A DNA stretch of 62,734 nucleotides, filler included, from Dugesia japonica (GCA_001938525.1; 5 parts of 5 records of this genome joined end to end with filler, not necessarily neighbours in it), one strand, 5' to 3'; positions 1 through 43,160 are shown, numbered from the whole stretch's first letter. Program-made: numbers and translations. The notes: generated from the letters alone by a model not told the origin.

Positions 1-1
1 T

Positions 2-386
2 CATAACCCGCATAACCAGGATGCCGGAATATTAGTCGATAGCTCCAACTTACCACCGGTAGAAGCCGCTGTAAATCGTATTCAGAACTTTGGCGAGACG
101 TTAAACTACCAGCATTGGAACGGGCCGGTGCGTAATCACACTGCCCCGTTCCAGTATCAAACTCCGGCCCCACCCCCAGTCGTACAAGCATTCATCAGCA
201 ATTTGCTCTGGGGCGTTAGGGAACCCACCGGNNNNNNNNNNNNNNNNNNNNNNNNNNNNNNNNNNNNNNNNNNNNNNNNNNGTCGTACAAGCATTCATCA
301 GCAATTTGCTCTGGGGCGTTAGGGAACCCACCGGTGTCGAGGACTCCGAAAACACTGCTCCTATAACGGACGCGGCCACTAACTAA
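2..386 (+). CDS. ORF1 of the repeat family, copy A (partial; spans an N gap with duplicated flanks)
   Basis: My translation HNPHNQDAGILVDSSNLPP...YQHWNG...FISNLLWGVREP aligns with ORF 31824-32252 (NPYNRDAGVLVDCSNLP...YEWNG...FVNNTLWEIRNP). Confidence 0.7.
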
Positions 387-595
387 TAGTTTTTCATTAT
401 TTTATGTTTGAATTGATAAATACATATGTGTTTCTAGTTAGTACTAATTTGCGTAGAACTGATTCATTATTTTAATAAAGGGGAATTTCTGTTATCGTTA
501 CCATAAGAATGTTTGAGTTTCTGTCAATGAAACAAATTAATAAAAAAGGGTCTGAGTTCAATGATAATAACTTTCATTAACCGTTAATATTTTAG

Positions 596-954
596 TGCAT
601 TCCTCTCTGAACCGTCCTTCAGCTCCTACTAAGAAACTAAGAGACACCAGCGAGGACCAAGAAATCACTTGGGACCTCTATTGCCTGGCAAAACGACGCT
701 GGGAGGCGGAGATTGCCACCGCGAACAGTAAGGTCAGCCGATACAAGAAGAAATGCATGTCCTTCAAGTCTGAAGCCGAGGCATCTCATAGGTAAGGAAG
801 GCTCTGGAAGACCCAACTAGAATCTTTTACTGAGATGATTCGGTCCTACCAAGACCGCGAAAACAAATTGGTACAGGACGTCCATCGATTAAAAGCTGCT
901 ATGCCCCTCGAACCATTAATTGTCGACAAGGGTAGCCAGACCTCGCGGCCTTGA
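596..954 (+). pseudogene. ORF2 of the repeat family, copy A: coiled-coil protein ending DKGSQTSRP; one in-frame stop
   Basis: Starts after the acceptor TTTTAG|TG. The frame continues past TAA at 793-795 as GRLWKTQLESFTEMIRSYQDRENKLV..., which matches 31244-31606. Confidence 0.7.
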
Positions 955-1042
955 TACTTGTAAATTTACAAATAAGCGTTTTGTTATACCTACATTCTTC
1001 CTTCTGAATTATTCACTTGATTATCTTTTGTCTGTTTTACAG

Positions 1043-1454
1043 AAATAATTNNNNNNNNNNNNNNNNNNNNNNNNNNNNNNNNNNNNNNNNNNNNNNNNNN
1101 NNNNNNNNNNNNNNNNNNNNNNNNNNNNNNNNNNNNNNNNNNNNNTTAAAGCAGAAAGCGGATAGAGCATTGATTAAGCATTTAGACCAGCGAGATCGTC
1201 TGATCAAAAAACTTGATCAGATTGTGAAAAAGGAGAATGACTTGGCGGTGCAGACAAAGACGTTAGAAAATGAAAAAAAAATGCTATTGCAGAGGAAAAT
1301 CGATTTCCTCAAACAATATATATCCGACCTTTCCCGCCAACTAGGAAACCCTACATGGGTCCAATGGGACGACAATGATGATTCGGCGGCGTTCAACCTT
1401 TTGACGACCAATCCAGCCCAGTGGTTAGATCCGGGCGCTTTGGATCTTATCTAA
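1043..1454 (+). CDS. ORF3 of the repeat family, copy A: coiled coil with acidic tail ...QWLDPGALDLI (gapped)
   Basis: Acceptor TTTTACAG at 1035-1042. Homologous to 30734-31095 (QWFDPGALDFM) and 25778-26106. Confidence 0.7.
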
Positions 1455-2029
1455 TTTTCATTTAAAATAATTATTATTGTTCAATTCGTTCTAATCTTTG
1501 ATGAAGCCGTGGGAACAGGGAAAAGAGTGAACTCAAATTCAAAGGCCTATGGGAGCGCACCTTCCATTAAGAGAGAGGTCAACCGCTATATGCTGAATAT
1601 CTAACCTAGGGGCGTTTGGTTAAATTCTTGAAAGGGTTCCCCTGAGGGCTGTTTTTCCGCAGCCACACTTTTCTTCATCCAACTCAGGTTGGACCCCAAC
1701 GATATTAATAATAATAATAATTATAGTAATTTTATATATGAGGTATTAAAAATTACTTGTAAACTTTACATGATACTGAAGAATTATTATATGAATATTA
1801 TAATGATTTAAATACAATAATGAGATGCAGAAGGTCACAAATCACGATTAATTCTTGTAAAAAATAATTAACTTTCTTTTGATGTTCATTAAAATCTGTA
1901 GAAGTAATTATGGAATTAAATGAAAAACCCACATTTCTTTAAAAAATTTATAATAGATAATTACCATATCCATAATAGAATTCCATTTTAAAACTTTTCA
2001 ACAAAGTGCTTGTTGATGAAAAATGCAAT

Positions 2030-9890: not shown

Positions 9891-9990
9891 NNNNNNNNNN
9901 NNNNNNNNNNNNNNNNNNNNNNNNNNNNNNNNNNTTAATTAATTAANNNNNNNNNNNNNNNNNNNNNNNNNNNNNNNNNNNNNNNNNNNN
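9891..9990. other. Artificial contig spacer N44-TTAATTAATTAA-N44
   Basis: Identical 100-nt structure occurs four times; the core has stop codons in all six frames. Confidence 0.95.
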
Positions 9991-15299: not shown

Positions 15300-15700
15300 G
15301 TTTTGAAATAAAGGAGAAAATTGTTCTTTATAAGAAAATTCATGATTTGCTTTATAGAACAAAATTTGGTTTTGTAAATGTGCTTTTCATATTATTCGAA
15401 ATAGATTTTTATTACATTGACAAGTGTGCATAAAACTTTGTTGAATTTTCATTATTCCTAATGAATAACGCAGCATTCCATAAAAGTAAAATTGTAACCA
15501 AATTTATTACACGGAATGAACATGAGGTTGTTTTCTCAACCCCTTTAAGAAAGATCAGATCAAATTTCTCAGACGGATTGCAATGGATTCTATCGAAACA
15601 TGGAGAAATATATATTATCTTTATACTAGAAATAAACTGCGGACTAAATTTATGTAAATAAATCTTTTTGAATATTTTACAGTTTTTCATTAACGCTAAT
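15300..15700 (+). mobile_element. Tc1/IS630-like transposase remnant
   Basis: FLMNNAAFHKSK resembles the second catalytic motif DNAxFH; the rest is highly decayed. Confidence 0.5.
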
Positions 15701-16569: not shown

Positions 16570-17365
16570 TGTCATTTAATAGTTTTCCATGTTGAATTGT
16601 TTGTTGAATATGTACTTTTAAGTTTGACGAATGTCATGACCAAGATAAGGCTACGCAAACTTATCCATGAGAAAACACAAGAGTTTGTAGGTCAATGCCA
16701 ACGCAATGAAAGGTTTGCCCTTGAAATTTGTTAATTGTGATTGCAAACGCTGAAATAATTTGAAACTGCCTGTTTCAAAATAAATGGTAATGTTGTATCA
16801 GACGGAGCTAAATCCATTTTGATAAAAAAACAGAACTTCCTCTACAACATACAGATATGATTTTCGCTTTAATAAAATTATGAGCCAATTCTTCAATTAT
16901 CAGTCNNNNNNNNNNNNNNNNNNNNNNNNNNNNNNNNNNNNNNNNNNNNNNNNNNNNNNNTAACAACTTCTTTTTTTAATGTTAACATATGAGGATGAAG
17001 TTAGAGTATTTAAAAATTTTGTAGGATAATGTAAAGCATCATTCCTGCCATCAGTGATAATTGAATCAGAACTATGATAATATTTTGGAACATCAGGAAT
17101 CATTTCGATGATTTTATTGTTAATTTCAAGTGTGTGTACATTTGTTGGCGCAAAAATTACTCTTTTCGAAAACTTATCTTTTGTCATTTGATTGATGTTA
17201 AAAATTAATGTAATTAGATTGCCAGTATTTATCATTTCTTCTTGTATTTATATAATATCTTCCAAAATACCAGAAATTGTAGGTAAATTACCTTCCCTAA
17301 CTTTTAATAACCAACTATTATAAACAGTTTGAATATTGCTTCTCATATTACTTGCTAGCTTTAAA
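16570..17365 (-). mobile_element. Helitron PIF1-like helicase C-terminal remnant
   Basis: LKLASNMR, WLLKVREG, IFAPTN, YPTKFLNTL and RQF...[24 protein letters not shown]. Confidence 0.9.
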
Positions 17366-20300
17366 ATATCCGGATGAAATGCGGAAGTTGGCTGAAAATT
17401 CTGAAAAGAACGATAAAAATTTTGGTGGGTCACAGATAAATAAGTTGACTTACTCAGAAGTGGCAGCTGCAAGTTACAGTCCAGGAATTAAAAAAATTGA
17501 TTTGAAAGATTCTAACTATCATAAACCCAGGAATGAAATTGAAAAAACTATTCCAATTGCTGAAGAATTTAATGATTCCAAAAATAGCAGAGAAGGTCAA
17601 TTAGAAATATGCCAACAGTTTCCATGAAGTTAATTGCAAGGAAATTGTACAATAGATCAAAAGAACTCCCTCAATCAAAAGAAGAACAATTAGAAAAAGA
17701 CTCATGCTTTTGCTGTGGTAAAACGGGTCACAGTTTTAGAAGCTGTCGATTACCCAGAAATCAGATATATCAAAACAATTGTGTGAAATGCATTTCAGAA
17801 GTGGACAATGTGGATGAAAGAAATAAAGATTTAAAGATGATCAATCATGATGTTAGCTATTTAAACGAAAGAGACTCAATTGTCTCAATTTCGTCGGTGG
17901 AGTCAATTGTGAAATGTATAAGAATGATGGAAAAATTTGAAGTATGGTCAAAGTTAGAAGTAAAATGGTCAAAATGTTGTGGGATACACGTGCTTCAATA
18001 TCGTGATGCATACAAAGTTATGGAACGAGTGTGAATCTTTTCCCTTGGATAGATGCAATATTAAATTGAGTGGTGCATTTTCAAAAGAAGCAGTGAATTG
18101 TTCAGGAATTGGAAAAGTTGAAATAGAATTTGGAAATGTGAAGAGAATTGTTTACATTGTGATTGTTAATGGAATAAATCCAGAAATTATTGTTGGAATA
18201 GATATGTTTAATGCATTTAATATTCAATTAAAAATGCTTAATATACTGGATTCAGAGAACATTAACAGCAAATTCATTGATAATGATAGTTTTAAGGCAG
18301 CCTTTAAACCGGAGGATAATGATTTAAAAGAAATGCTTCCGAAGTTTTCAAATATATTTATGGCAGATACTTGTGATCTTAGAAAACATTTTGTAAAACA
18401 TTTCATTCCAACAGTTTGCAATCCTATTCTACAACAATCTCAACGTCAACCAATACATCTTGAACAGAAGATTGATGAATTGATTGAGCCACTGGTAGAA
18501 AGAGATATTATCAAAGAATGAAAAAGTGCTAGAAATTTTCCAATGGTAATTGTTGATAAAAAGAATGGCTCGATGTTGACTGATTCTACAAAAAAGTTTT
18601 CATTCCCAATGCCAGATCCACAATCCTTGTTTGATAACCTTTGTGGTTGTACAATATTTTCAACTTTGGATGTGGGACAAGCTTCTTACCCAGTAGAATT
18701 AAATGAAGATAAGATTAAAACGGCATTTTTAACAAAGAAGGGACAATATTACTACATTCGTATGCCATTTGGATTATCAACTGCTCCAGCTATATTTCAG
18801 ATTTGATGCATACAATTCGTGATGGGATTTTATTTAAAGGTGTAGTTGTATATTGACGACATTTTAATATTTGCAAAAAGTCAATCAGAACATGATAAAA
18901 TACTTGAAAATGTATTTCAAAGAATTTAGAATTTTGGTCTCAAATTCAATCCAAATAAATGTAAACTATTTGTTATTTTTGGGCTATACCGTTAGCAAAG
19001 ACGGATTGGGGCTTAATTCAGAGAAAGTATTAGAAATTGAAAAAGCAGAAATACCAAAATGTACTAAGTAATTACGTTTCTTTTTGGATATGGCAAACTA
19101 TTACAGGAAGTTTGTTAAGAATTTTTCGTTACTTGCAAAACCATTATATGCCGCAATGGAGGGCCATAAATGAAAACTCAAATGGACTGAAGAGTGCAAA
19201 ACAAGCTTTAACGAGATCAAGCAAGCTTTATGTAAAGCACCAATATTAAGTTTTTCGGATTCAAGCAACCAATTCATATTGAATACTGATGCTAGCTTTG
19301 GTGGGATCGGTGCAGTATTGAGCCAAATTCAAAACGGTCGTGAAGTGGTAATTTCATATGGCTCAAGAATATTAAATGTTCATGAAAAAGGTTATTGCGT
19401 GACACGTAAAGAACTGCTGGAGTTATATGAATTCATCAGGTATTTTCTTTATTATTAATATGGGAATAGTATTGTAGCACAAACCAATCACACGGCATTG
19501 GAATTTATTAAGCGTTCACATAAAACAATCACACCACAATTTTAAACCTGGATAACCGAATTGGCAGAATATAATTTGGAGCTTAAATATAGGAAAGGTG
19601 ACCAACACCTAAACGCATATGGTATGTCTCGTATTCTTTCAAGTTAATGTTCTCAATGTCAAACCGAACATGTGGATGCAATAGTCAAGATGTCTAAAAT
19701 AAAATATCTGAGTCTTTTAGATGATTCTGTAGGCAATGCGGATAGCTATATTAACAGATTTCACTGTCAATTTTGCAAGCACAAGAAAAGAAGTAGTGAA
19801 AAGGTTCAAGAGAAATTTATTTCGCGCGAAGTTAGTAATCCTAAGGAACAAATCGTTATGGATATATCATAGATGGATATTGGTCGATCAAATAAAATAT
19901 ATATTGTTGTCATCAATCAACTTAGTAAACTGATTAGTCTTACTGCAACAAACAATTAAAATGAAACCACTGTAAAAGCACTCCATTAAACCAAAGGATT
20001 TATAAATTTGGAAAACCACAGAAAACCGTGTCAGACCGTGGTAAAGTATTTGAATGGAAATTATTACAAAACCTAGCTAGTAAGCTTAATATTTCATGGA
20101 TTTTTACGTCTCTATATGAACATAAATCTAATGGATTAGCTGAATGAGCAATCAGGACGGTTTGAGACCTGGTAGTTACTTCAATGAAAGCGGGAAAATA
20201 GGGCAAATCTTGGGATGAATTTTTTCATAGAGTAGAGTTTGCATTCAATTGTACTGTATCAAAGTCAGTGGGATTCTCATCAATGGAAATCATTTATAGG

Positions 20301-23949: not shown

Positions 23950-24751
23950 AAAATAATACTTTTCTTAAAAAATAACAATTTTCTAAAACTTGTATGATAT
24001 GAACACATCAACACTGAATTCTTACATAAAATTATCAGAACTTCTTCTACATATAACTTTTCTTTTATAATTCCTTCTTGCTCATTATAAATAATAATAT
24101 TTATTGAATAATAATAATTTCACATTTTTATATTTTTTTAAAAAATTATAATAATAATACAATTCTTGTAATTAAATCTGACTAATAATCTACTATTTTC
24201 TTATTTATAATGATTATGATGATTTATTCTGCTTTTTTCCCTATAGTTTCTCTTTAAAATATCAAAATATTTTAATATAATTATTTGTTTTAATCTCTCC
24301 TTTTCTCTCATCAATATAATTTTATTTTTAATACATGAATACTTTCAACACATTTATATAAATTATAAATAATAATATTTTCCTCGTTTTATTTTACATT
24401 CTCCTTTTCGACTATTTAAATACTTTGATTTATTTTCTGAGCATATTTTACCTTAGCCATCTAATTATTGATTATCTTCAATTATATATCTTTTAAAATT
24501 TAATAAATTCTTCGTTTTCTCGACAACTTATTGCATCTTTATTTTTTATATATTGCTTTACCCTAGATTTTGTTCGATATTTCTTACACTTTTTAACTTC
24601 AGTTATTATTATTTAATAATCATTTCCTTATCTTTTCATAGATAATTATTTTTTTTATTTCTAATTAATTTCTTATTCATTTTCTTACTACCCTTTAATT
24701 TATTTCCTTCTCTGTTTTTCATATTTTACGCAAGGCTGTTTCAGCTCAACA
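23950..24751 (-). mobile_element. A-rich repeat beginning TGTTGAGCTGAAACAGCC; probable 5' terminal part of an LTR-like element
   Basis: The terminus matches 39952 (TGTTGGTCTGAAACAGGCC) and both have a similar strand-biased AT-rich body. Confidence 0.5.
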
Positions 24752-24969
24752 CTTCCATGGTTATTATTATCGTTCATAATAATTTTTGGAGTTATTATCT
24801 CCATATGAATTGATGAAATTATTGCAATGTTTATCAACGATATGTTTGTTGATTTTGTTTCTAAATCATTAATAACGCTATCCCGTTAGTTTTCTTATGA
24901 TCATTGACTTGACATTGACTTGTTTATTTTATTTCTTACGAAATATCCAACTTATTTTCTTTAGTTAAC

Positions 24970-25254
24970 ATGTTCGGAGATAAAACACAGAGATAATATC
25001 CATTAGACACAGGACGTGGAATCAATAAACCCGTAACTAATACGCTAAATCTTTGTGTAGACATATTAAATGACTACTAGAATCTACCCTCAGTAGAGAG
25101 AAGAGTCCAACAAGCAAGGCCTAGATTTGAGAGTGATTTCGCTCGTTTTCGAAACCCTGGATATTTCCGGCTCACTGACCTTCCTTCGTTCCCATAATCA
25201 TGGTACACTGCTGACACAGAGGCAAACCCGTGGAACGAACGCTATACGTTGTGA
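24970..25254 (+). pseudogene. ORF1 paralogue, copy B
   Basis: TGRGINKPVTNTLNLCVDILNDY*NLP aligns without gaps to TGRLIFKRYKNPYNRDAGVLVDCSNLP; acceptor TTTCTTTAG lies upstream. Confidence 0.6.
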
Positions 25255-25391
25255 AATTGACTAATTATTTAGCTTAATTTGAATAAACTTTTGACAGTCA
25301 ACTTGTTTGCTAGTGTCGCTTTTTTGTTAACCTAAATAAATTATTGTATTGTTCAATTATCTGTTTTAAATCTATATTATGTTTTTCATAG

Positions 25392-25651
25392 TGTCTAAGT
25401 TCGCAGGTAGGATTTATGAAAATAGTACCGGTCGTACTATTTTTCGTCGGGTAGAAAACCCGTACCGCGTAGAAGCTGAGCTTTCTCATGCTCAGGAATG
25501 AATGTTGAAAGGACAGTTCGAATCGTTTGCAGAGAATATCCAATCTCTAAATGAGAGAATGAACAAGGTTTTCAATGATGTCCTGACACTACGTAAATGA
25601 ATCCAACTTAATCCGCTCTTAATAGATATGGAAGATCAGACACTGAACTGA
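25392..25651 (+). pseudogene. ORF1-N-terminus/ORF2-C-terminus chimera, copy B
   Basis: Begins at AG|TG. TGRTIFRRVENPY is in frame with EAELSHAQE*...FESFAENIQSL...NPLLIDMEDQT. Confidence 0.6.
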
Positions 25652-25777
25652 GTCTGCTTGTGTACAGTGCTACCTACTGCTTGTTAATAAATATTTTAAT
25701 TTGTTCATTCCAGCTTTCTTTATTCACATAGGATTTGTAAGCTGCTTATTCTTTTATATTATTTACTTTTGATTTAG

Positions 25778-26106
25778 TGCCTGTTATCCAGTTACCCTGG
25801 AGTTTACGGTGATGTCACAAATTATTGCGCGGACTATTTACCGAACGCAAGTATGCCAAAAGGTGTGAACGAGCTCTGACCATCAAACAAAAAAATCGAT
25901 GAATAGAGAAATTAGAAGTTGTGTCTAAAAAGCAGATGGCCACCGCCATTAATACTGCAGACAGATTCTTTAAAAAGGTCAGTTTTTTAACGCAATATAC
26001 AGCTGATTTAACGGCCAATCAAAGCCTTTGAATCATCGACCAGCTGGATTGCGAGAATGATGAAGCTCTGTTCAACTTCTCTGACGAGGCTTCAACTCAA
26101 TCTTGA
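25778..26106 (+). pseudogene. ORF3, copy B
   Basis: Begins at AG|TG and reads PVIQLPWSLR*CHKLL...ERAL...KVSFLTQYTADL...ENDEALFNF. Confidence 0.65.
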
Positions 26107-27364
26107 CTTACCCATAGTTTTTTTAATGTTGAATAAACCACACTCATTGAATTTCTGTGGTTGTTTTTTTATACGCGTTGAAATTAAGGGGAAACTTGAA
26201 CCCAAACCAAAGAAATTCGAGCAAGCACTCAAACTACGGGTTATGAGTCACTGGCTCCATCCCGAAAGTCTACCAAATGGATGTTAGATTAAGTTCTTAG
26301 CTGGGTTACACTGAGGACTGTCCCCCAGTTACAAATTAAAATCACCCAACTCAGATGGGACTTCAACAATATAAAAATTTTATTTTTTGTTGTTTACTTT
26401 GATCAGTATAAATAGTACTATTAAATAATATAAGCGGTAATCAAAGTGAGTATCATACAAAATATAAAAATGAACAAAACCGAAGAGAAACGTCCAAGCA
26501 CTCAGGTCAGTAAAAGAATCACTAACACACTCCATCTCTAAAATATTGACATGTGATACCAGATTAGATTTCCTTTAAAAAAGTCACTTGGACATCCAAC
26601 ATAATCAATTCAGGAAATCATATTGTTTCAAAAATTAAAATACAATTATCTGATTAACTGGCTTTAATAATTACTTTTAAAATGTTTTTAATCTAACTCT
26701 AAATACGAACAGAAAGATCGCTATTGTAATGACCAGAAACCCAAAAATTTCAGCTAATTTCTACAAAAAGTAACAAATCACAGCGAAATATTTTAAATTT
26801 AAAAAGATTATTTGGAATAAATATTCTTGTAGAGTAGTTTTATTTTTGATATTTATTTTACACAATTTTGTAATTGTATTTTTTCAAATTAAAATTTTGT
26901 AAAAATACAATCCAAAATAGACTAAACATCATATAACTAGAAACAAATAATATAGAAACATCTCTCTACAAAGTCGTTTATTCGTGAAGGGTTATTAAAT
27001 AGAATCTTTTTTTTATTATTCTTTTTTACGATAGTGCAACTGATTAAACTTTAAAAAGTTATCTGTAAATCTTTTTAAAAATGATTCATTATATTAGAAA
27101 AAAGTCATATTATAATAGATAATTTTTTTTGGTTGATGGATGTCATTAAATTCAATATCCACTATACGCTATAAAAAATTCGTATTTTATGATTTAAAAT
27201 TCACCATCCTTTATTTATACCACTTATAGTTGCCAAATAAAAATTATAAAAATAAATATAATACTTTTTAAATCAAAATTTGTGTCATAAAATTTCCATG
27301 CTACTTCAACATTTAAGTTTGTTTAAGTTTACTTCGATAAATTTTGAAATATATTTTTATATTG

Positions 27365-28098
27365 ATGGATATATCCATGTTAGTAAACCCGTTGAAAAGA
27401 GTAAATATGATACGTTAAAATATTGTTTAATGTTCAATAGAATATTTTATTAGGTTAAAGATTTTGTCGATTCAGAAATAAAACATAAATATCAGGTATA
27501 TAAATTCTTTACCGTTTTTTTAATAAAATTTTTAATAATCATTTTAAAGAAAGAAAATGAATCATCTTCTAATGATTGCCAGGTAAATTATAATTTTTCA
27601 CATGTCTACTTAAGAATCTGATAGATTATATCGGAAAATATACCTTCAAATCAAATAAACGCAGCGTCTCCTGTTTTACCGCCATCACTACATCCAAAAG
27701 AAAAAATGAAAATTCTGCAGGAGTGGGTAAATAGTATCCCAAGTGATTCACCGTGGGATATATGTGAAAGTAGTTCTCGCAGTAATTCTTTAACAATTAT
27801 GTCAGATGATTATACTAAACAACACGAAGAGAGTGCAAATGTTAGTGACCCAGAAATCTTACCAAATCGTCAATGCAAGAAACTATTTACTTCAACAGAA
27901 ACTCAACAGATTGTTCATTTATTTTACCATCATTTTAAGCAAGGTACACTTCCAACTATAGTAGAAGTTAGACGTCTTATTCAAAGCAGTGCAATCGGAT
28001 TAGTACGTACACCTGAATCAGTTCGTGCTAAAATCAAACGCTTGCATACTACCGGAGATTGGGCTAGCTTCTTGGGCAAGAATTTTTATACGTTATAA
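27365..28098 (+). CDS. Predicted intact 4-exon gene (27365-27400, 27454-27495, 27550-27582, 27625-28098), 194 aa, with a C-terminal Myb/SANT-like helical domain
   Basis: Three phase-0 GT-AG introns of 53, 54 and 42 nt join into one open frame. The C-terminus is KKLFTSTETQQIVHLF...LPTIVEVRRLI...RTPESVRAKIKRL. Confidence 0.6.
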
Positions 28099-29358: not shown

Positions 29359-30733
29359 TTTTTACAAATAAATTTTGTTTTGTTTTGATCGAAGCCTTAT
29401 CTTATTTTAATGAAAACTTATGAGTTGTTTAACAAATAATATTACTAAAATCTTTTCGCAGTTGTAATAATCGCTTTAACTTAACATGTTTCTGTTTGCA
29501 ATGCCGTTCATATTAAATTTTTTTTTAAAGATTTCAGTACTACTAACTATTTAAAAAAATTGAAATATGGATATATGGTTTTAATTTAAAAATTTGCAAT
29601 GTTTTCTGATAATAATTTGCCTAGATTGCCCTGTAACAATTTCTCTCGATTGTCGTAATAGTGAGGTAGAATATCGATTTAAATTATGATTTTATTTAGA
29701 GAATGATAGAAAAATGAACTTTTGAATCAAGTTTAGTATTTATTATAAAAAAAACATTGATTTGANACTTAAATTANACTTATTAAATGTGAAATGCCTT
29801 CATTAAGCTTGGAACACCGGGTAACCGCTCGGGGCGTCAAAACTTATTTGTAAAATTAATTTAACGTTTGTTTTTTGCAACTTTTTTCTTAATTAATGTT
29901 ATTATCAAATCAGTTATGACATAAAATTTTTTGTATTTTTGATAATTAAGTTTTACATTATATTATTTTAAATTTAAGAAATACTAATATTTTCTGTTGA
30001 AACTTTTTTTTAATGGACAACGGTCAGGGCTTCACTATTGTACTTCTTACATTTATTAAAAAAAATGGCGCTTAACGATGGGTTTTTCCGGAGCTCCCGA
30101 AAACCTTAGTTCGGTACTGACAGTCATTAAGAGTACACTCGCGATGTCAAAGTTCATAAAAAAATAATTATAGTCCTAGGAAAAGTCTCAATACTCTTCA
30201 TTCTAGTCTGAATCTATTTGAAAGTAACAATGATGTATCATCCTTATTTAAAGTACCATTATCATATTGTTTGAGTTAATTATTATTTTATTTGTGTTTC
30301 TCAATAATTTTAATTTTTCCCGATTTTATAAAATTAAAAAGCTTGTATCAAAATGTCTTGCAATCGAGAAACTTAACGGACATGCGTAATCCATATTTCC
30401 CGGTAGTTCTTCCAAATTCTCCTCCATAGCAGTTTTGGGACAAGTAAGTGATAAGATAAAGATTTGTTTTTGCACAACACAAAAATGTTGGAGTTCCACC
30501 TGAGTTGGTGTTAGAAAAAATAGTGTCTGGGGAAAAACAGCCCTCAGAGGACCCTTTCAAGAATTTATCTAATGTCCCTAATTAGATTTTCAGTATAGAG
30601 CGGTTGACTTCCATCATTTATTTGAAGTACATACTCATATGCCTTTAGTTTCGGGTTCCTTATTTTCCCTATAATTTAATTTATTAACAACAAATTAATA
30701 GTGTATGAGAACTAAAATTTTATTTCCAATTGA

Positions 30734-31095
30734 TTACATAAAATCCAGAGCACCCGGGTCAAACCACTGGGTTGGCTCTTCAGGGATGAAGCCAAAAGCC
30801 GCTTCATCATCCTCGCTGTTCNNNNNNNNNNNNNNNNNNNNNNNNNNNNNNNNNNNNNNNNNNNNNNNNNNNNNNNNNNNNAACTCGATTTTGTGCTGGA
30901 GTACTTGTTTTGTCTGTTCGGCCAAGTCGTCATGCTTTTTGACTATGATGTCAAACTTCTTAATTAACTAGTTGCGCTGGGCAAGGTGTCGTAGGAGCGC
31001 GCGTTCATTTTGTCTCTTGATATGGCACTCAAGTAATCATTTTTGAATAAGGCGGTGGCAGCGACGTAAACTGGTAGGAAGTCTGATTCTTGGCA
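30734..31095 (-). pseudogene. ORF3, copy C
   Basis: Starts at TTTGTAG|TG and reads PRIRLPTSLRRCHRLI...NERALLRHLAQRN*LIKK...QWFDPGALDFM. Confidence 0.7.
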
Positions 31096-31243
31096 CTACA
31101 AATGAAATAATTAAACTGAAATTACACTATAATGTAAAAGTAAATCGAAATTCATATTTTTCCTTACGATAAAAGAAAAGAATAAAAGAAAACCAATGAT
31201 CAAAATTATAAATGACTATTTTATTTGTACAAGACATAACATC

Positions 31244-31606
31244 TTAAGGTCGTGTAGTTTGTGTTGGTTTATCCACCATGAGAGACTCAAGGGGCATGCG
31301 TTCCCGAAGTTTGATTATATCGGTCACCAGTTTATTCTCACGGTCATGCAGGGACCGGATGATCTCCGCGAAAGATTCTACTTGTTGTTTCCACAAGCGC
31401 TCTTGTGGGTGCGAGGCCTCGGCCTCTTTTCGGAACGCCTTATATTATATTAGCTTTATATTTCTTTACCTTATTTTCTGTGATTGCAGTGTTGGCCTCC
31501 CAACGGCGCTTAGTGAGACGGTATAGGTCCCACGTCATCTCCACCTCCTCACTTGTTTCTCGCACTTTTTTAGTGGGAACCACATAACGATTTAGGGAAG
31601 AATGCA
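31244..31606 (-). pseudogene. ORF2, copy C; ends DKPTQTTRP; small frameshift near 31445
   Basis: Starts at TTTTCCAG|TG and reads HSSLNR...TWDLYRLTKRRWEA...EAEASH..ERLWKQQVESF...DRENKLV...MPLE. Confidence 0.72.
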
Positions 31607-31823
31607 CTGGAAAAGAAATGTATTTAAAATATTATATGTAAACAATGAGGAGATAAATAATTAGTCGATTTCATTGAAGTTGCAACCACATCATAATTAA
31701 TTACTTCGGGCTTGGTAAACCGTTAAATTATGATGATTAAGATCGAGAGTTAACAAAAAATGCTTAAATAAAGACTAAAATAATTTATTAACACTAAAAG
31801 TGGTCATCAAGAGATACGAATTG

Positions 31824-32252
31824 TTATATAGTCTCGTCATTAGCATCAAAAACCACATTTTTTGTGCAACCACCATTCTCAGGATTTCGGATCTCCCAAA
31901 GTGTATTATTTACAAACTCACCCAATCTGAAGAAATGTGGTAGACGGGCAGTTGAAACTGGAATCACCGAAGGGCCTTCCCGCCACTCACTGGTGGTACG
32001 AAGCTCTTCACTGTTAAACAGAGGAAAAGCCGTGGTGGAATGATATACTCCTCGATCTCGATTGGAGCCGTTCCATTCATAAAAAGCATGACACTCGGTG
32101 GCGTCCCATTGTCGCTCGTTCTCGGCCTCTTTTGTAGGCAGATTAGAACAGTCTACCAACACCCCAGCGTCTCGGTTATAGGGGTTCTTATATCGTTTGA
32201 ATATTAATCTTCCGGTACGCCGGTCTAAAAGCATTTCCCACTTATGTTCCAT
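31824..32252 (-). CDS. ORF1, copy C: intact 142-aa orphan protein
   Basis: Open ATG-to-stop frame with an acceptor (TTTTCTTTTAG) 7 nt upstream; homologues in copies A and B. Confidence 0.72.
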   Translation of the reverse strand: MEHKWEMLLDRRTGRLIFKRYKNPYNRDAGVLVDCSNLPTKEAENERQWDATECHAFYEWNGSNRDRGVYHSTTAFPLFNSEELRTTSEWREGPSVIPVSTARLPHFFRLGEFVNNTLWEIRNPENGGCTKNVVFDANDETI

Positions 32253-32574
32253 TTTTTTCCTAAAAGAAAATTACTAAGTCGAAATGAGTTAATCATTGAT
32301 TTGACGACAATTTTAGCGATAAAAGTTAATAAAAAGAGAAATGAAGTACAAATATGAGATTATTTATTTTACAGTGAAACAAAAGCGAAACACCAAAAAG
32401 TAGTCATGGTTCCTCGCCCAAGTCAACTTCCCAGGAAAGTGAATATAATTCCTTGAAGCACTGGAGATCTAACTCGTGCGGGGAGAGGACGACATTGGGG
32501 TAGAGTAAATGGCCGATTAATTTCTTACGCCGTGTCCGTTTTCTCTCCCGTCGAATGTAGTTCAACGTATCTTT

Positions 32575-34151
32575 CAAAAGAAATTTCTTCTATTGCAGTA
32601 AATTCTAACCGATTAATACCATGATCTTCATTTTTGATTCCACGATTGAATTCATTATTTTCTTTTTTTCTGTAATAACTCACATATACCAAGCAATGGG
32701 TGCACTAATAGATCGCCGAATATAAAGAAAAGAATATATAAAGAAAATTATGAGGGTTCAACAAAATCCAAACCTTATGCAATAATTATGGCGACATCCT
32801 TAATGAAAACAATATTAGCCTTAATGACATATTACCCTCAGCCTACAATATGGTACTGGCGTAATGGAATAGATGAGTTCACATTAAGAGCAGTGATTTC
32901 AATAATAGTAATAATAATAGGGGTTCTAGTAGTACTAGTAGGGGTAGGAACGACAATATTAGGGATAACAGCAGTGGTAACAGTCTTCATACCTGTGATA
33001 ATATTAACCACACTAATGTCGATAATAAGATTAATGGCAATGACAACATATACAATAATAATAACTGTAATACTATGAACAATATGAATAGTGGTAATAA
33101 TAATATTTATAATCATAATAATAACAGTAATGAGAATAATAATAAAATTAATGATAATAATGGGAATATTAACAATAGTAACAATAACTATACTAATAAT
33201 AAAAAAATAACATTAATCATAATTTTATTAATAATAAGGAGAATGCTAGTAATAACAATACTAATAATTAATGATAATTATAGAAATATATTTATAATAA
33301 TAATACTGATAAGGATGATATTGATGAGAATCATAGGAATATTCATAATAATGATAATAACGACTCATGTACCTCTGATAATGCTAGTAATGCGAACGTC
33401 GGTAATATAATTGATAGAAACCATGGTATCATTACTAACAATTTTGATCATAATAAAGTCATTACTGGACATTGACAGAATGATATTATGAATAATAGAC
33501 AAGAGTAATATTATGTGCAATGACGTCCATGGTGGTACAGATAGGGTTTATCACAATAGATTGTCGTAATAGCAACACCACTCATGAAAATTAAGCGACT
33601 CGTCATAACACTTAATATTATATTCCTGATAAAATCACTGAAAATGCTAGTAATACTGATATCAGACACTATTTCTGCTAATACTACTGATGATGGTGAA
33701 AAATCGATAGTAGTGGCTAAAACGATAAGGTTGATTATTTTTATCCGTAATTAGATGATAGTGATTATTTTGCTAACAAAAATCCACCGATGACAGTTAA
33801 TTGCTAGTTGACTCACTACATGACATGCATACTCCTCGTTATTAGTGTTGCAGGTGTTTTCATCGTACATGCCCGAATTTGAACTACAATTGGAGTGAGT
33901 AATCTCAGTAAAAAAGAAAAAATTTTTTTTGTCTTCTCTCTCTGTGATGGATTTTTACGGAATTGAACTTGATAATTCATTATCACGTAGCTTTTTGGAT
34001 TTATATTCGGCGATCTATTAGTGCACCCATTGCTTGGTATATGTGAGTTATTACAGAAAAAAAGAAAATAATGAATTCAATCGTGGAATCAAAAATNAAN
34101 ATCATGGTATTAATCGGTTAGAATTTACTGCAATAGAAGAAATTTCTTTTG
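32575..34151. repeat. 152-bp inverted repeat pair (32575-32726 and 34000-34151) enclosing Asn-rich low-complexity DNA
   Basis: The arms are reverse complements apart from two N positions. Confidence 0.9.
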
Positions 34152-35531
34152 GTATAAAACAAACCAGGTCTATTCTACATATGTTTCAGGGTTCTCTCGA
34201 TAACTATACCCGTGTTTCTCGTGAGAAAAGAATTTAACTGCATACTTAGAATTTTGGTTACATGACTATCGGGCCGAACTGGTAATTCCATAAAAAAACA
34301 TTTATAATTTTCGTTTTTCTGCTTATCATATTTTTTAAAATTAACATTTATTTAAAAATGACATAATTTTAACGATAACAGATAATTTAAGAATAACATA
34401 ATTTTTGATTACTGCATGATACATAATGGCAACACAAAATTTACTTGGTAAAATTAATTTTCAGCTTTCTGCAACGGGTAACTTCTTCCTGAAATTCATT
34501 TGATTATATTGATCGCAAGTTTCTCTTGTTTGATTTCCTTTTTTCTTGCTAGCCCAATACTTTTCCACTATAAATCCGAAACAAATGCAGTTAAAAATTT
34601 ATGAAAAATCGTGATCTTACGAATAGTAAGGTGATGGTAGATTAATCAGCTTCTCGTAAAATTTTCTTCCAAAAGAGTATAGCAGTAATATAGTTTGTTA
34701 ACTTAACAAAGTTGAGAAAAGTTTGTGTTTTACTTCTAAATTTCGGGGGGGTTTATATACCATTTGCCTTTGCACCCCAACACAGCCTTCATTGGCGTTC
34801 TATTTTTATTTTTCATTTCTTAAGTTCTATTGGTCCTGATGCCAATTTTCTGATTTTTTCTAAGAATTTTTCGTCTATTATTGATGCCTATTTTTGGAGC
34901 ACCTTGTAATTTTTTATGCCTGTTTTATTTTTCTTTTCTGGACTGCGATTGGTTTAAACCTTTAAAACCTTCTCAAGACCCTCCTATTGATAGTAGAGTT
35001 TCTCCGTTACCAAATCCTATTGCCATGTAACATTTTCTCTTCAGATTTTCTTACTGAAGCCTCTTGCAATTTTCCAGAGCAACGATATCCTTCAAAAACT
35101 CATTATTGTCTAATTTAATTTCTTTCTTGACTAAAATTAATTAATTTTCCCCTGCTAATTAATTACTTTTTCAAAAAAAATTTTCTTGTTTTTTCTTAAT
35201 AAATTAAAATTTTCTTTAATTATTGAAGTTGATCAGGGTTGAATTTATTCTTCTGACATTTTCTTTCTGCCGTTTATCTTTCTTTCTTCTCTTTTTATTA
35301 GTGTAATTATTATAATGTTTAACCAAATGATAATTAGTTCTAATTAGCTTTCTTTATACCCCTCTTTTTCATTACTTTCTGATTTGGCCCCACTGGCCTT
35401 TATGTTCTTTACCACGCGGGTGTTGCACCCCAACAAAAATATCAAAAGACAAATCAAGGACTTTACCAATCTATGATCTCATAAATTAACGAATTTAATA
35501 ATCTTTTCTTCACTTATCGAATAACTATTGT

Positions 35532-36106: not shown

Positions 36107-36457
36107 TTAAAATCGTTGATTTGCCTTTGCGAAATCCCAAAGACATCTCAACAATTTAAAGAGTAGTTTTTGATATATCTGTTCTTGGTTATTCACTCTT
36201 TCTTGTAACTGCTTAAGCATGGTCAGTTTATTCCTTAGAGTCTCTGCCTGTTGGACAACTTGCTCTTTCAACTTGATGATCTGCACATCTTTCTGCTTGA
36301 TGCGATCCTGTGTGGTCTACCATGGATCTACATCTGTGACATCCAATCCAAGGGAATCCCATAAAGTAGGCATGCTGTTACATGGGTTTGCATTGAAGAA
36401 GCTCCTCTCGTTTCTTAGTGAATCTCTTGCGATTGTTTCCGTTTTATGACGAGGCAT
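36107..36457 (-). pseudogene. Orphan coiled-coil ORF (117 codons, one internal stop)
   Basis: TAG|ATG start; reads MPRHKTE...QDRIKQKDVQIIKLKEQVVQQAETLRNKLTMLKQLQERVNNQEQ; higher-GC island. Confidence 0.45.
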
Positions 36458-38569
36458 CTATCTATACAAAACATTTCGAGTATTAGAATATTACGAACGT
36501 TTAATCATTATTAGTATATTAATCAATCTCAACCACTTCTTATATAACAATATTCATTTAATAAAGAATTTAATTAACCAAGTTACTATTTCAGATCACT
36601 GATCATTCGTCATGAGTAGAAGGAGTTAGATCTTCTTCGTGAAACTTTTATAATTTAGCATAAGCTACATAAATTCATAAATCTGTGGTCAATTGAGGTT
36701 TCGTATTTGTCATAATCCGTATTAATCTTTATTTATTAGGTGCCACCACTTGAAAATCTATCCCCTTCATCATAACGAACGGTCCTTTTGCATTATCATA
36801 TTAAAATTTCAATTATGGAAGCATCAAATTATATTTTATAATAATTTATGTATAAACGATAATATGAAACAAAAGCATGATTAAAATAATAAAGTTCATA
36901 GATAATCAACTTAATATTTTTATTGCAGGTACAACCGCAATATCAATGTACAAAAATTAAATATCTGAATAACCATCAGATAGAATTCAACCACCACATA
37001 TCAGTAAATAGAGACATATTTATTTCTAGAATTCAACAACCCAATTCGTATNNNNNNNNNNNNNNNNNNNNNNNNNNNNNNNNNNNNNNNNNNNNNNNNN
37101 NNNNNNNNNNNNNNNNNNNNNNNNNNNNNNNNNNNNNNNNNNNNNNNNNNNNNNNNNNNNNNNNNNNNNNNNNNNNNNNNNNNNNNNAACCACTCTCATA
37201 TCCTAATATCATCTCATAATATAGTAACATCTTTCATGACTCTCATAATATAAAAACATCTTGAATGACTCTCATAATATAATGGTGGATAATCTCATAT
37301 TAATTCGGATCTCTGAGCACTGATGTCCATCGTTTCCAGCGCTGCCAGTCAACGATAAACATNNNCCCAGTCTTCCGATCATATAATTTAAATAATTAAA
37401 TAAAAATAAAAATTACTGTTCGTTTGATGAGAGTTCTTTGAAATGCAATATAAATACTACTGGTAACTTTTAACAATAAGATAGAGTAACAAATTTTAAG
37501 AGATTTATGAGATCTTTTTGTGTAAATTGTATCTCCTTTTATATCAAAATTTATCGTCATATTTTGACAGGTGGTATAGGTACCCACTTCAATTTTTCTA
37601 CAAATCTACTNAATCGTGNGATGCTCACTCGCAGATTCGTTCATAATGTCTAAATTTGGTCATGTTTTTATTTGCATTTAGATGTTCATCTTTTATCTGT
37701 AATAATTTCAATAAGCATATGAGTACCGGTGCTTATTCGGCATCATAGATTTTACAGTGTTTCTCGGTGTTCACCCGATAATTGGAGTTAGGACATCATA
37801 ACGAGACTCAGAAAAANNNNNNNNNNNNNNNNNNNNNNNNNNNNNNNNNNNNNNNNNNNNNNNNNNNNNNNNNNNNNNNNNNNNNNNNNNNNNNNNNNNN
37901 NNNNNNNNNNNNNNNNNNNNNNNNNNNNNNNNNNNAATAACCAATGAAAGGAATGGGGCTGTGAAGAGAAACCGGTATAAATACCGATGAAAATTTCACA
38001 AAAATATCAGTCTTTTTAATCTTTTATCGAAAATCCTACAGTTAGACGTAGAATTTTTCAAATATTCACAGAAGGTTACTATTTTGTACTAATTGATTAC
38101 AGTTGCAGCGATTTCCGACTTGATGAATTAAAGAAGTTATGAAATCAAAAATAATTGGCTTCGTTATGCAGATGTGGATCCGAAGTTAATGATTAAGTGG
38201 TATACAATGGGTGATCACGTTAAATCTAATAGCTCTTATGTGCTTGCTCCAGATCGGGATTGCAGTCTACGTTAGTTTTATTGATTGTCCTAATTATTAA
38301 ATAGATGTAAAACAAGTGAAAGTTTTGATAATTGATTATACTATTCACTTGTTAAATTCGTTTGTCCTTTACAACTGTAAAACATAAGGTATGGAATTTT
38401 AAACTAAAAGTTATAACGAATCAAACTCAGTTAAATATGCATGACCATGAATTAGAAGACATTATAACTGATAAAATCAAATCTAATAAACGATTTATAA
38501 CCTGAAATCCAATAAATTAAGGATTGATAAGTAGCAAGTATGATTCGAAAATCGAGCAAGTATTATGAA

Positions 38570-38738
38570 GTATAAACCCAAACCAAAGAAATGCGAGTCT
38601 GTACTCGGATTCCGAGTCAACGGCTCCGTTCCGAAGATCTGGATTTTTAGGGACGCCAGATTAAATTCTTCACGGGGTTTTACTAGGCCCTAGACTAAAT
38701 TTTCCAAAAGATTAACCCACCTAGATAAAACCCCAACA
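38570..38738 (+). mobile_element. Copy E: 3' terminal block of the orphan repeat family, ending CCCCAACA
   Basis: AACCCAAACCAAAGAAAT..GAGTCA..GGCTCC..CCGAA..AGATTAA.TTCTT is shared with 26200-26368. Confidence 0.7.
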
Positions 38739-38739
38739 A

Positions 38740-39952
38740 TACTATAATAATAATTTTAATAATATTTATCGTAAAATAATAATAATTTCGATAGTTTGTT
38801 TCTATAATGTACATAGGGATTATACACGAATAAATGTAATTAATTTAACATTCTTACAAAATCTGAAATTAACTTTTTATTACCTTTTATTACATATAAT
38901 TCTGATTTCTTAATTCTAATTCCTTCTTCATAATTAATAATATTTAACTAAAATAATAATAATATTATGTTCTACTTATTTAAATATTTTATTATAATAG
39001 TATGATTTTTCCTAACGGCCTAATAATAATTTCTTTAATGTTTTTAACTATAATAATAATACCGATCTATTTCATATATCTTTTCTATAATGATTCCAAT
39101 TAATTTTAATAAAATCTTTTATTAACATACTTTTGTTTTAATCCTACTTTCTTACATTAACTATTTTATTATATTCTAAATATCCTTTTTAATATATTTA
39201 TACTGTTATAACATAAATATAATTATAAATAATAATATATCAGAAATTCTAATTTCGATTTCATTTATTATTTCTTCTTTACTATTTCCTGACCTAATTC
39301 ATACTTTTAATTTTGGTTTATTCGAGTTTCTTTTTATTTTCGTGAGCTATATTTATATTATTTGAGCTTTTCTGCTTTTAGTTTATTGATTATTATTTCT
39401 TTGAGCATTTTATATTAAATTATATTCCTTTAATATTTCTGGTATAAAGTATTCATTAATTAATAATTGAATTATTATTCTTTTTCATTTCATGATCTCC
39501 ATTTGTTATTTAATTATTGTTCTTTTCCTTTCTAAATTTATCATTTGAGCTTTTTGGTTTATCATCTTCTTGAACACTATCTGATTTCAATTATTAATTT
39601 CTTCTTTTATTATATTTTAATTTAATGATCACTGGTTTCTGTGTTTATTTAATTTTCTCAATAATTAAATCGAAAATTTATGCAATAATTCGACTTTTGA
39701 GTTTATTCCGATGATTCCGGTTTATATGTTTCTTGTATTCTGATTATTATTTTCTATTCATTTCTCTCATTGTTATTAATTTAATTACTCAATTAATTTA
39801 TCGATTTATTGAAGCCGTTATTTTATTTTATTCGTTATCATCGCTTTTCGCTTTTCTATTCCTTTTATTACTTCATATCATTGTCTCTTCTTTTCCCTAG
39901 TTTATTTTTGTCTAAATATTTATTTTATTAACTGGCCTGTTTCAGACCAACA
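38740..39952 (-). mobile_element. A-rich repeat beginning TGTTGGTCTGAAACAGGCC (same type as 23950-24751)
   Basis: Shared terminus and base composition. Confidence 0.5.
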
Positions 39953-39999: not shown

Positions 40000-42900
40000 A
40001 TATGTTTGAAATGAATAGTTCTGATTTAGAAAATATATTATCTTTAGAAGATTTATCTAGCATATGTGTCAGCAGTAAATATCGATTCAATTGCAGACAT
40101 TTTATTACTAAATCTGTTTAGTGGAGAAGATTAAATTGAAATATTCATAAAGCATTGTGAATTGTATTTTGATGCTAAACGCACTACACAGATGAAACAA
40201 CATGAAAGATTTCTTGTTTGTTACATGACGATTTGCTGGAAGAATATGAAAAGACGTTGAAAAACGTTTTAGGGTTTCAGACTCGTTTAAGTTTGGCATT
40301 TGAAAAAGAGAAAGATGTTATCAAAGATTTTCAAAATTTGATTAACTACAGGCTTGAAAATGAAGAGATTCAAGTTTATTTTAAAAATGTAAAAGATTTA
40401 GTAAAAAGATGATTGACAAATAAAGATTTTACTGTTGAAAAAAATGGTAGCAAAGATGATAATATTTTTCAGATAACAAAAACGTTGAAGAAGAGGTGAC
40501 TTTGTGGAACCGACAGAATATAGAAGAAATTAAAGAAACAATGACGTTAGTAGATCAAATGGCGAAAAGAAGAGATCAAGTTGATGCAGTTATAAGTTGC
40601 GCTAGATTTAAAAGTTGAAATTATCAAAAACATATAAATCATACAGTGAGTAAACATGTGAATCAAAAGAAGGAAAACGAAATATCTAATGTTAGTTATG
40701 TCTTAAGATTTGTCATGCTAAGACAAGTTGTCCGACGCAAAAAGTGGTAGGGTGTTGGACTTGTCATAACAAAGAACATATATGTCGAGTTTATCAAGAT
40801 AAAAAACCAACAAAATGCTTTGGCTGTGGAAAGTTAGGCCACATTAGAAGGTAATGTCAAGAAGTGAGTTATAAACGATTTAGAAATTTTGGGTTTATAG
40901 CAGAAGAGTGCTACACGAATTGGAAAATGAAAAGAACTATTAAGAAATTTGTGACTGCTGGAAACCCAGGAAACCGGTATGACCAAATACATTCGATTGC
41001 AGAAGAACAAGTCAATACAAACGATGGATACAATGAAGTATATGAAAGTGATTTAAAATGGCAGCACCCAAAAGACAGTGCTCCACCAGTAAAAGAGTTG
41101 GCTGAAGCCATTCATTCTTTTAAAAAGTGATTGATTATCCTCAAAAATCAAAAAGTGAAATGATATCGGGAAAATTACAGAAAAAGTAGACAGGTTCTTG
41201 AAGAGGGAAAATTTTGAGGATGATAGAAAGATAAAATGGATTGGAACAATTGAAGCAGAACATAGAACAAATATTTCGTACCATAAATTGCAAGGCAGAC
41301 CAAGTGTTACGGTATGAATTTAAGAAAATAAAGTTGAATGTCTTTTAGATACAGTGGCTCGAATTTTAACGTAATGAGTTTGAGTTGTTTTAATAAATTA
41401 CGAAACTACATTTAAAAATGAGGTATGAAAGACTGCATTGTTCAAACGATAGTACACTGAAAGTTGTTTGGTAAATTAAAACTGTAGTGACAATTGATGA
41501 AGTTTGCAAAGAAATTACCTTCTTAATTGCAGAAAGAATGACACCAGATCAGATTGTAGGAATAGATATGCAGAAGATCTTTAGATACCAGCTTGTTGAA
41601 AGAAAAACTAATGAAAAGGTTAAAAAATTATATTTGTAATATTGAAGCAAAATTTAAGGATCAAATTAAAAAGAAGAGCGATTGACAAGACTCTGAATAT
41701 TAAAGACGATGAACGGTTATTGAACATAGTTGGAAATTAATAAGATGTTTTCATTGTAGATAAATGTGATGTAGAACGCACACATTCTAGAAAAACACAA
41801 AATAATTACAAGTGGTGAACAAATCAATGTAAAGCCGTACTTAGAAGTTAAAATTGAAGAAAAAAAACATTTTTGAAAATAATATTATCCGGATATGCAA
41901 CTCTCCACTGATTTGTGTTTAAAAAAAGGAAAAGAAAGATAAAAGAATATGTTTGGATTTCAGACAACTGAATGCTGTAACGAAAATACAAGCCTTTCCG
42001 ATGCCTAACATCGATGAAATGCTGGAAAAATTTGATGGAGCAAAGTTTTTCAGTTCAATAGAATTGGGAATTGCATACTATCAAGTAGATCTCGAAGAAG
42101 AATCTCAAGAAAAATGGCGTTTCAACGAAGCACAGACAATATTGTTTTAATAGAATGCTATTTGGTATCGCAGCGGCACCAGGTACATTTCAGGAGATAA
42201 TGACAAAAGTGATAGGCGGGATAATTGGAGCCATAGTTTATCTTGAAGACATTTTGATATTTACGAACAATAACGATCAACACTGTGAAGTAAATGACAG
42301 AGTATTGATGGAAAAAATTAAGTCTGGTTTATGAATTAATCCAGAAAAGTGTCAGTTTTTTCAAGTCAAAATTAAATTTCATGGTCAAATTTTTAGTAAG
42401 GATGGTTTTAGAGCTGATCCGTCTAAAATAGAAGCAATAAGAACATTTGGCAACCTTAACTGCGTCAAGAAGTTTCTTATAAATCTGTAATTAGTGCAAG
42501 ACGTTTATAGAAAATTACGCAAGAAAATCAAGGATCATAGAACAGTTGTGTAGTGGACCAAGCAACAAGAAGTTAGAATGGATAGTTGAAATAAACTATA
42601 CTTTCGAGGGTCTGAAGAAAGCTCTAATGACTGCACCAATATTGTGTTTTTCAGACATAAANAAAGACTTTATATTAGACCCGGACTCCAGATTCAATAC
42701 AATTTGAGCAGTATTGTCACAGTGAGATAAAGTGGTAAGAGAAAGAGTTGTTGTTTATGGATCATATTCAATGAAAAGTCATGAGAACGGATATTGGATC
42801 ATACGAAAAGAGTTATTGGCTGTTTATTATTTCGGCATGCATTTCAAACATTACTTGTACGGTAGAAGATTTATTCTTAGGACAAGTCATAAAGTTCTAA

Positions 42901-43160
42901 CTTTTATGATGACAACAGAGAATCCAATTACGTCACTATAATTAACATGTCTAGACCAAGATGCGAGGTATGTGCACAATTTCAAATGTCACATGAAGAT
43001 GTTAAGATATGGAANATTAAAACAAGAGTACTGAACACAATCGAAAAGGAAAAAGAAGAGCAATTAAACATTTCTGAAGAAAAAAATACGAAAATTCTGG
43101 ATGACAAAATACATGAGACAATAGAATAAATACAAAAATTATTATGTCAATCTGGAACGT
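40000..43160 (+). mobile_element. Degenerate Ty3/gypsy G4, same family as G1
   Basis: Gag (IKDFQNLINY...IQVYFKNVKDLVK) is nearly identical to G1; LLDTVA protease site; DFRQLN; VYLEDILIF; RKELLAV. Confidence 0.92.

Follow-up and report, generated by a model that had tools for sequence, protein, structure and literature searches.

The DNA analysed here (the window) is a stretch of 62,734 nucleotides from the planarian Dugesia japonica (GCA_001938525.1), which consists of five contigs joined by spacers and is AT-rich (GC approximately 27%). It contains four related copies, A to D, of a dispersed element; in three of them the common end is preceded by a cassette of short open reading frames (ORFs), and one, copy C, can be followed from end to end. 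The copies lie in three different contigs (contig 1 holds A, contig 3 both B and C, and contig 4 D), in agreement with the original prediction made from the same sequence. Below, a slash within AG/TG and similar motifs marks the putative splice point.

1..1701, plus strand: copy A; the 5' part lies beyond the window; end of ORF1 at 2-386, ORF2 at 596-954, ORF3 up to 1454, then the end block
24960..26368, plus strand: copy B; no 5' end found; a first frame at 24965-25197, ORF3 from AG/TG at 25778, then the end block
30486..35435, minus strand: copy C, in which alone both ends are present (TGTTGG...CCAACA); AAAA on either side, at 30482-30485 and 35436-35439
38574..38738, plus strand: copy D, the end block only
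30486..30733, minus strand: 3' terminal block of C, conserved, non-coding and common to A-D; the deepest part of the element in the DNA run X1
35422..35435, minus strand: 5' terminus of C, an inverted match to the 3' terminus at 11 of 14 bases, with no similarity further in
34752..34782, minus strand: second terminus-like motif, in which the 13 outermost bases of the terminus recur exactly (34782-34770) ahead of a TATA-like box (34759-34752)
34461..34567, minus strand: ORF-1, an AG/TG acceptor followed by 34 open codons, in C only
32404..32574, minus strand: ORF0, approximately 55 open codons, GC 47%, a basic N-terminal part, AATAAA 36 nt past the stop
31824..32259, minus strand: ORF1, acceptor at 32259, own ATG at 32252, 142 aa, AATAAA 35 nt past the stop
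31244..31606, minus strand: ORF2, AG/TG opening, predicted coiled coil, frameshift near 31440, AATAAA 19 nt past the stop
30734..31095, minus strand: ORF3, AG/TG opening, coiled-coil-like, two in-frame stops, AATAAA 10 nt past the stop

The 3' terminal block spans 190-250 bp and ends in CAAC(A/G) in all four copies, at 30486 in C (minus strand), 1701 in A, 26368 in B and 38738 in D. An nhmmer search with the end of C as the query retrieved A (E = 9e-24), B (2e-12) and D (1e-7), and over the last 190 nt the identity is 75% for A-C and 64% for B-C, compared to 48-50% for shuffled sequences. The common block had been predicted to end in (C/T)CAAC(A); the block itself was recovered in A, B and D, but the final base differs in A, which ends in CCAACG. 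The short inverted TG...CA ends ascribed to C are present, and the TGTTG seen at both sides follows the TGTNR pattern, with a single copy available for this comparison. As for the target-site duplication of 4-5 bp proposed at C, a candidate of 4 bp, AAAA, lies on both sides, and the 5-bp version contains a mismatch; AAAA accounts for 2.5% of the 4-mers in the window. The proposed length of approximately 5 kb applies to C, that is, to one copy, and includes a 152-bp inverted duplication.

Alignment of DNA run X1 to C yielded 5,629 contigs concentrated on the end block and the ORFs (matches to the AAT repeat counted in), in line with the predicted dispersed repeat. The depth, which is summed at 80% likeness and is not a copy number, reaches 37,458 in the end block, 2,316-19,936 in ORF2, 682-913 in ORF3 and 271-839 in ORF1, compared to 67-108 in the spacers and 42-47 in the flank. 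This comparison addressed the 3' end, and the alignment covered C up to about its 5' 1.3 kb. The depth pattern shows a large family with conserved coding parts and a conserved end, and a dispersed high-copy family with a common terminus is likewise seen from the 3' end of all four copies. Protein and end-motif searches of viral and metagenome contigs found no related loci.

The order ORF1-ORF2-ORF3 is complete in A and C; B, for which it had also been proposed, keeps the order but not the full cassette, as an internal deletion fuses the start of ORF1 (AG/TG at 25392) to the end of ORF2 (to 25651). Stops, frameshifts or a deletion interrupt each of the three cassettes; the scanned frame of ORF2 in A, for example, which opens with AG/TG, has a single stop, at codon 66, and in C an assembly gap (30822-30881) falls within ORF3. 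The protein motifs listed in the original prediction are present, although QWxDPGALD occurs in A and C only. For the pair A-C, with 258 aligned codons, identity by codon position is 0.61, 0.77 and 0.32. The proportion of synonymous differences (pS) is 0.88, that is, saturated, with the synonymous rate dS undefined, and that of nonsynonymous differences (pN) is 0.30, yielding pN/pS of 0.35 (bootstrap 95% interval 0.29-0.41). The same ratio is 1.09 and 1.80 in the shifted-frame controls and 1.02, 0.45 and 1.85 in the reverse-strand frames, the value of 0.45 presumably coming from the frame that shares third positions. Comparisons with B agree for ORF2 (0.35 and 0.49); ORF1 of B offers 18 codons only, with an interval up to 1.02, and ORF3 only 4 aligned codons. 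The GC content is 45-47% in the ORFs and 20-27% in the spacers; three spacer pairs score at the shuffle level, and the end block is 75% identical. Since the silent sites of A and C are saturated at pN/pS 0.35 and the spacers are at the shuffle level, ORF1-3 are, by sequence comparison, real genes under purifying selection. Past selection of this kind had been suggested before, and a ratio of about 1, expected in its absence, was not seen. Copy C belongs, in decayed form, to an old TG...CA family of high copy number, the short ORFs of which were once under purifying selection.

The ORFs had been treated as free-standing; ORF2 and ORF3, which lack their own in-frame ATG, instead resemble last exons joined by splicing. 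The conserved frames of ORF2 (in A and C) and ORF3 (in B and C) start directly after a pyrimidine tract and AG/TG, and no in-frame Met precedes the conserved block in any of these four cases. ORF1 has the AG/TG opening in B, and in C its own ATG lies 7 nt past the acceptor. In the window, 33 of the 328 acceptor-like sites are followed by TG, and it is unlikely that AG/TG would occur by chance, in frame, at three different ORFs (roughly 1 in 1,000 before phase is counted). In ungapped alignments, the split codon of ORF1 of B falls exactly on Met1 of ORF1 of C (score 44, next 10) and also on Met1 of P0001 (score 34, next 6), an unnamed protein of 94 aa encoded on a contig of 512 bp, which was the only match among seven candidates in the search for ORF1 homologs. 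As AG/TG is in frame at three ORFs and the register coincides with Met1, the simplest reading is that the missing A of the ATG would be supplied by an upstream exon.

Each of these frames tends to be followed by a polyadenylation signal. Of 10 stops, 5 have AATAAA within the following 60 nt (shuffles give an expectation of 0.73) and 7 have it within 100 nt (1.5 expected); the signal is present after ORF0 to ORF3 of C and weak in A. ORF-1 is defined by its acceptor and is excluded as independent evidence. Taken together, the acceptors, the split starts and the AATAAA signals after the stops make the cassette look like a set of alternative last exons, the ATG of which would be completed by splicing. 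The motif at 34752-34782 is a candidate promoter. The conserved acceptors, the AATAAA signals and the candidate frames ORF0 and ORF-1 were absent from the original prediction.

Database searches, in accordance with the prediction that these proteins belong to no assignable family, gave no informative match. The homolog searches covered proteins of near length only and, with the ORF alignments, confirmed none of 139 candidates for ORF2 and none of 15 for ORF3. A profile search of 1.84 billion representatives returned P0001 and two NHL-repeat proteins; the latter were rejected as relatives, the match being to a short motif. Pfam and NCBIfam gave only weak matches below the cut-off, mostly to coiled coils (for ORF3, coiled-coil models exclusively), and no mobility domain scored above the cut-off in the scanned frames of the element, so the absence of a mobility enzyme noted earlier holds for these frames. 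Among PDB sequences nothing fell under E 0.29, and Rfam and tRNA searches were without match. In the Atlas, ORF1 resembles phage-tail-like clusters (0.91-0.94; recognition 2284, 79-134 shared features), which is a weak lead; ORF3, at 0.79, gave nothing. AlphaFold predicts for ORF2 two long helices after a short basic tail (predicted local distance difference test, pLDDT, 79.7; predicted template modelling score, pTM, 0.35), and Foldseek with this model found no PDB match, the best viral one having E 3.1; the model for ORF1 was unreliable (45.4) and was left out of the fold search. From the persistence of the ORFs on a mobile unit, we infer that their products are accessory regulators of the parent element. 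ORF2 and ORF3 may have no database relatives because ATG-based gene callers miss them.

We consider it somewhat more probable than the opposite that C is a solo long terminal repeat (LTR) of a large gypsy-type retrotransposon, the repeat holding a cassette of accessory genes that are alternatively spliced and have split start codons. The parent element, equipped with gag-pol, would insert via its own integrase at AT-rich sites with a 4-bp duplication, and recombination between its LTRs would leave copies like C. A promoter in the 5' part would drive a non-coding leader ending in A, which would be spliced to one of four or five acceptors, creating A/TG or reaching a nearby ATG, and each message would terminate at a separate poly(A) signal. 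The products, which include two predicted coiled coils, would serve as accessory factors for expression of the element or for defence against silencing rather than as host genes; this is the weakest step. Neither a primer-binding site (PBS) nor a polypurine tract (PPT) was found at any of the five ends in the window (TGG follows none of the four 3' ends, and no purine tract adjoins the single 5' end), which fits the expectation for solo copies. A wider proposition is possible but tentative, namely that the terminal repeat is a self-contained multi-gene unit with one promoter and leader, four or five alternative last exons and a start codon that splicing alone creates; each of the thousands of dispersed copies could then make a set of unknown accessory proteins, conserved across subfamilies with saturated silent sites.

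Several observations weigh against an LTR with a spliced cassette. The splice joint was not seen in RNA, where the three runs gave 72, 466 and 126 aligned reads; nearly all of these are partial, diverged (less than 90% alike) and located mostly on the AAT stretch, and the 5' 1.3 kb with the putative leader lies outside the aligned region. The candidate promoter and poly(A) signals of the repeat are a TATA-like box and AATAAA by sequence, next to sparse, partial reads from diverged relatives. DNA runs of the organism contain at most 0.55 of the sampled words, and no RNA run came up in that search although oligo-dT RNA runs exist for it, which says nothing about expression. None of 15 candidate splice donors could be assigned. 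The first frame of B and the exon of D open with AG/TT rather than AG/TG; in ORF3 the phase-0 frame, with 33 and 43 open codons, exceeds the conserved one (10 and 18); and ORF1 of B has an in-frame Met four codons upstream, within the pyrimidine tract. In copy A, AATAAA is found within 60 nt at none of three stops, and the ten stops counted were picked post hoc, homologous ORFs not being independent; the stop of ORF-1 was placed about 14 nt early in this count, a miss either way. The pN/pS values come from protein-guided alignments. The full-length boundary of C rests on one 5' end and a low-complexity 4-bp duplication, and it is blurred by the terminus-like motif at 34782. Genomic RNA would need to read through several poly(A) signals in the LTR, and no link of any copy to gag-pol, PBS or PPT was seen in the window.

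The lack of a mobility domain in any scanned ORF is also what a non-autonomous element without internal gag-pol would present, the cassette then being the whole unit, with an integrase-type enzyme acting in trans to move it. The four 3' ends, as well as one end in an X1 contig, abut AT-rich DNA, none of it a PBS, and purifying selection on many subfamilies requires copying as a whole. Still, the inverted ends of approximately 14 nt are short compared to those of Ginger1 (40-270 bp) and Ginger2 (50-180 bp) (PMC2836005), and a long conserved block at one end with no mirror at the other suits an LTR better; we regard this explanation as unlikely. A shade less probable again is that the cassette belongs to a larger element, of which it would represent the accessory region on the 3' side together with a short LTR, comparable to the additional ORFs found between pol and the 3' LTR in plants or to spliced accessory genes of retroviruses; the TGTTGG end of C with its AAAA would then be a nested piece or a coincidence. 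Only the last 190-250 nt are common to the four copies, D has different upstream frames, a single 5' end is seen, and additional ORFs close to the 3' LTR are well known (PMC7264820). However, the first 14 nt of C mirror its own end, and the 4-bp flanks match; by eye, the stretch from ORF3 to the end block showed no purine tract, and upstream of the cassette neither B nor C has a remnant of pol.

The succession of a stop, AATAAA, a short AT-rich spacer and an acceptor resembles an operon, and flatworm spliced leaders end in ATG (PMC12582326), so the cassette might be a polycistronic unit resolved by trans-splicing, or else be translated unspliced from GTG. Yet a leader contributing a whole ATG reads phase 0, which in ORF2 is shut after 4 codons, in A as well as in C, the conserved frame being phase 1; ORF2 and ORF3 have no Met of their own before the conserved block, unlike genes of a flatworm-type operon; and GTG starts leave the pyrimidine tracts unexplained. 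We hold this to be very improbable. Even less credible are exons of an ordinary host multigene family: spliceosomal and poly(A) signals and purifying selection are host-like, but the copies stop at the same sharp TG...CA-type terminus, which is non-coding and borders on unrelated DNA, none of the three cassettes is intact, and the family occurs in thousands of contigs.

The remaining features of copy C are the following.

32575..32726, no strand assigned: left arm of the inverted duplication, missing from one X1 contig (joint 32576 to 32740)
34000..34151, no strand assigned: right arm, 152 bp, 99% identical to the left arm
32877..33410, plus strand: decayed Asn-rich frame, AAT-like, on the strand opposite to the element and of low copy, a possible part of the element

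As one X1 contig lacks the left arm, this arm is a recent duplication or a local mis-assembly; it truncates ORF0 on the 5' side, and the homology of ORF0 to the first frame of B is weak. The segment 32575-34151 was rejected as a nested transposon with terminal inverted repeats, since it has no clean duplication and low depth and the X1 contig lacks only the left arm. Homology of the 5' part of C to DNA upstream of B or D was also dropped, the local score for D, above shuffles, not being confirmed by nhmmer.

The 3' flanks of A, B and D start with ATA(T/C) (1702-1705, 26369-26372 and 38739-38742), hinting at a preference for AT-alternating targets, and that of C is a run of T. In A, ATAT is followed by AAT repeats, and in one X1 contig the end of the family likewise adjoins an AAT repeat. 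The segment 38739-39952 (minus strand) starts with TGTTGG at 39952, matches the 5' end of C at 11 of 14 bases and continues as 1.2 kb of A-rich DNA up to the end of D; a part of it is 66% identical to 24048-24378 upstream of B, and nhmmer does not link it to C. Possibly it is the 5' part of another LTR-like element.

The frames upstream of the end block of D show no similarity to ORF1-3. Just before this block, at 38042-38280 (plus strand), a broken frame opens with AG/TT in the same phase as the cassette exons. Farther upstream, on the opposite strand, lies a coiled-coil-like frame of 116 codons (36107-36457, minus strand), which opens with AG/ATG, contains one stop and has no Pfam match and no similarity to ORF2 or ORF3. 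The subfamily of D may carry different genes in the same layout. Two homologies were considered and dropped, that of the minus-strand frame with either ORF2 or ORF3 and that between ORF2 and ORF3 themselves (probability 0.1-2%).

Elsewhere, the window contains decayed gypsy gag/pol pieces with matches to reverse transcriptase, RNase H and integrase. Decayed compact gypsy elements with zinc-knuckle gag and pieces of these enzymes lie at 7003-9727, 10065-12600 (minus strand), 17301-19600 and 40016-43149, none of them attached to copies A-D. Two frames have no Pfam match at E 0.01: one at 61535-62050 (plus strand), which by eye resembles a piece of a Tc1/mariner transposase, and one at 16900-17247 (minus strand), which, again by eye, resembles a fragment of a PIF1-type (Helitron) helicase. 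An orphan frame of 157 codons at 27625-28098 (plus strand) is also without a Pfam match, and to our eye its C-terminal part resembles a Myb/SANT-type helical domain.

The common view of LTRs is that they do not code for proteins and that solo LTRs are spent. If the proposed LTR with a spliced cassette is correct, a terminal unit would hold several selected genes, the choice of acceptor would act as a switch, and a start codon built by splicing would be a virus-like strategy of expression at the end of a retrotransposon; several new protein families would have been missed by ATG-based gene callers. In a planarian host, this would bear on how giant retroelements contend with PIWI silencing in stem cells. 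The model reduces to a sharp test, one base at one splice junction.

Genes reaching into an LTR have precedents in sag of mouse mammary tumour virus (MMTV) and nef of human immunodeficiency virus (HIV), both of which extend into it. No transmembrane FAST-like features were noticed in ORF1-3, with no formal test made. Gypsy LTR ends follow the TGTNR pattern (PMC2836005). The Burro/GYPSM1 elements, the nearest described giants, are planarian gypsy elements which share with the present family thousands of copies, accessory ORFs and an AT-rich host; their interior measures 25 kb, to which the two LTRs add several kb, and their polyprotein of ~4,900 aa is characterised by BIR, MATH and ankyrin domains. 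Their accessory domains, compared here by description only, are located in the polyprotein or an upstream ORF, whereas C would hold several spliced genes in the LTR (PMC6431247). Short conserved extra genes, some with their own poly(A) site, are also known as additional ORFs (aORFs) of plant elements (PMC7264820) and as sORF1/2 of the MDG1 group (PMC11952523), but in these accounts there are one or two per element, mostly outside the LTR, unlike the cassette of C. Ginger1 and Ginger2 resemble C in TGTNR ends and would also resemble it in 4-bp duplications and introns, and Ginger2 in its preference for AT-rich targets; however, they have inverted repeats of 40-270 bp and an integrase-like transposase, compared to the approximately 14-nt inverted ends of C and the lack of such a domain above the cut-off in its scanned frames (PMC2836005). 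The putative duplication at C is AAAA and not of the CCGG type of Ginger1. Ginger DNA transposons, excluded because the inverted ends are short, are thus disfavoured along with an ordinary host gene family.

A literature search whose reach stopped short of the primary Burro papers and the Repbase reports retrieved no account of a multi-ORF spliced cassette in an invertebrate LTR. Related DNA may already be catalogued in Repbase, as the reverse strand of the probe for GLT2, a planarian transposon annotated in Repbase (PMC8532177, Table S1), has, by eye, a pyrimidine tract, AG/TG and approximately 80 open codons in the same phase, in a partial probe of about 400 of 485 letters. GLT2 is de-repressed on PIWI loss (PMC8532177, PMC10954484); no similarity to ORF1-3 is evident by eye, and we treat it as a lead only. 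The closest parallel for the start codon is that of env of Drosophila gypsy, which is made by splicing as AT+G, the 5' leader being joined to a downstream acceptor (PMC2585583). There, one interior gene is split as AT/G, whereas in C several short non-env ORFs would be split as A/TG, apparently within a terminal unit. Thus, a start codon made by splicing is itself known from gypsy env, and what is new here is the putative split-ATG acceptors at ORF2, ORF3 and ORF1 of B, together with the poly(A) signals after the stops.

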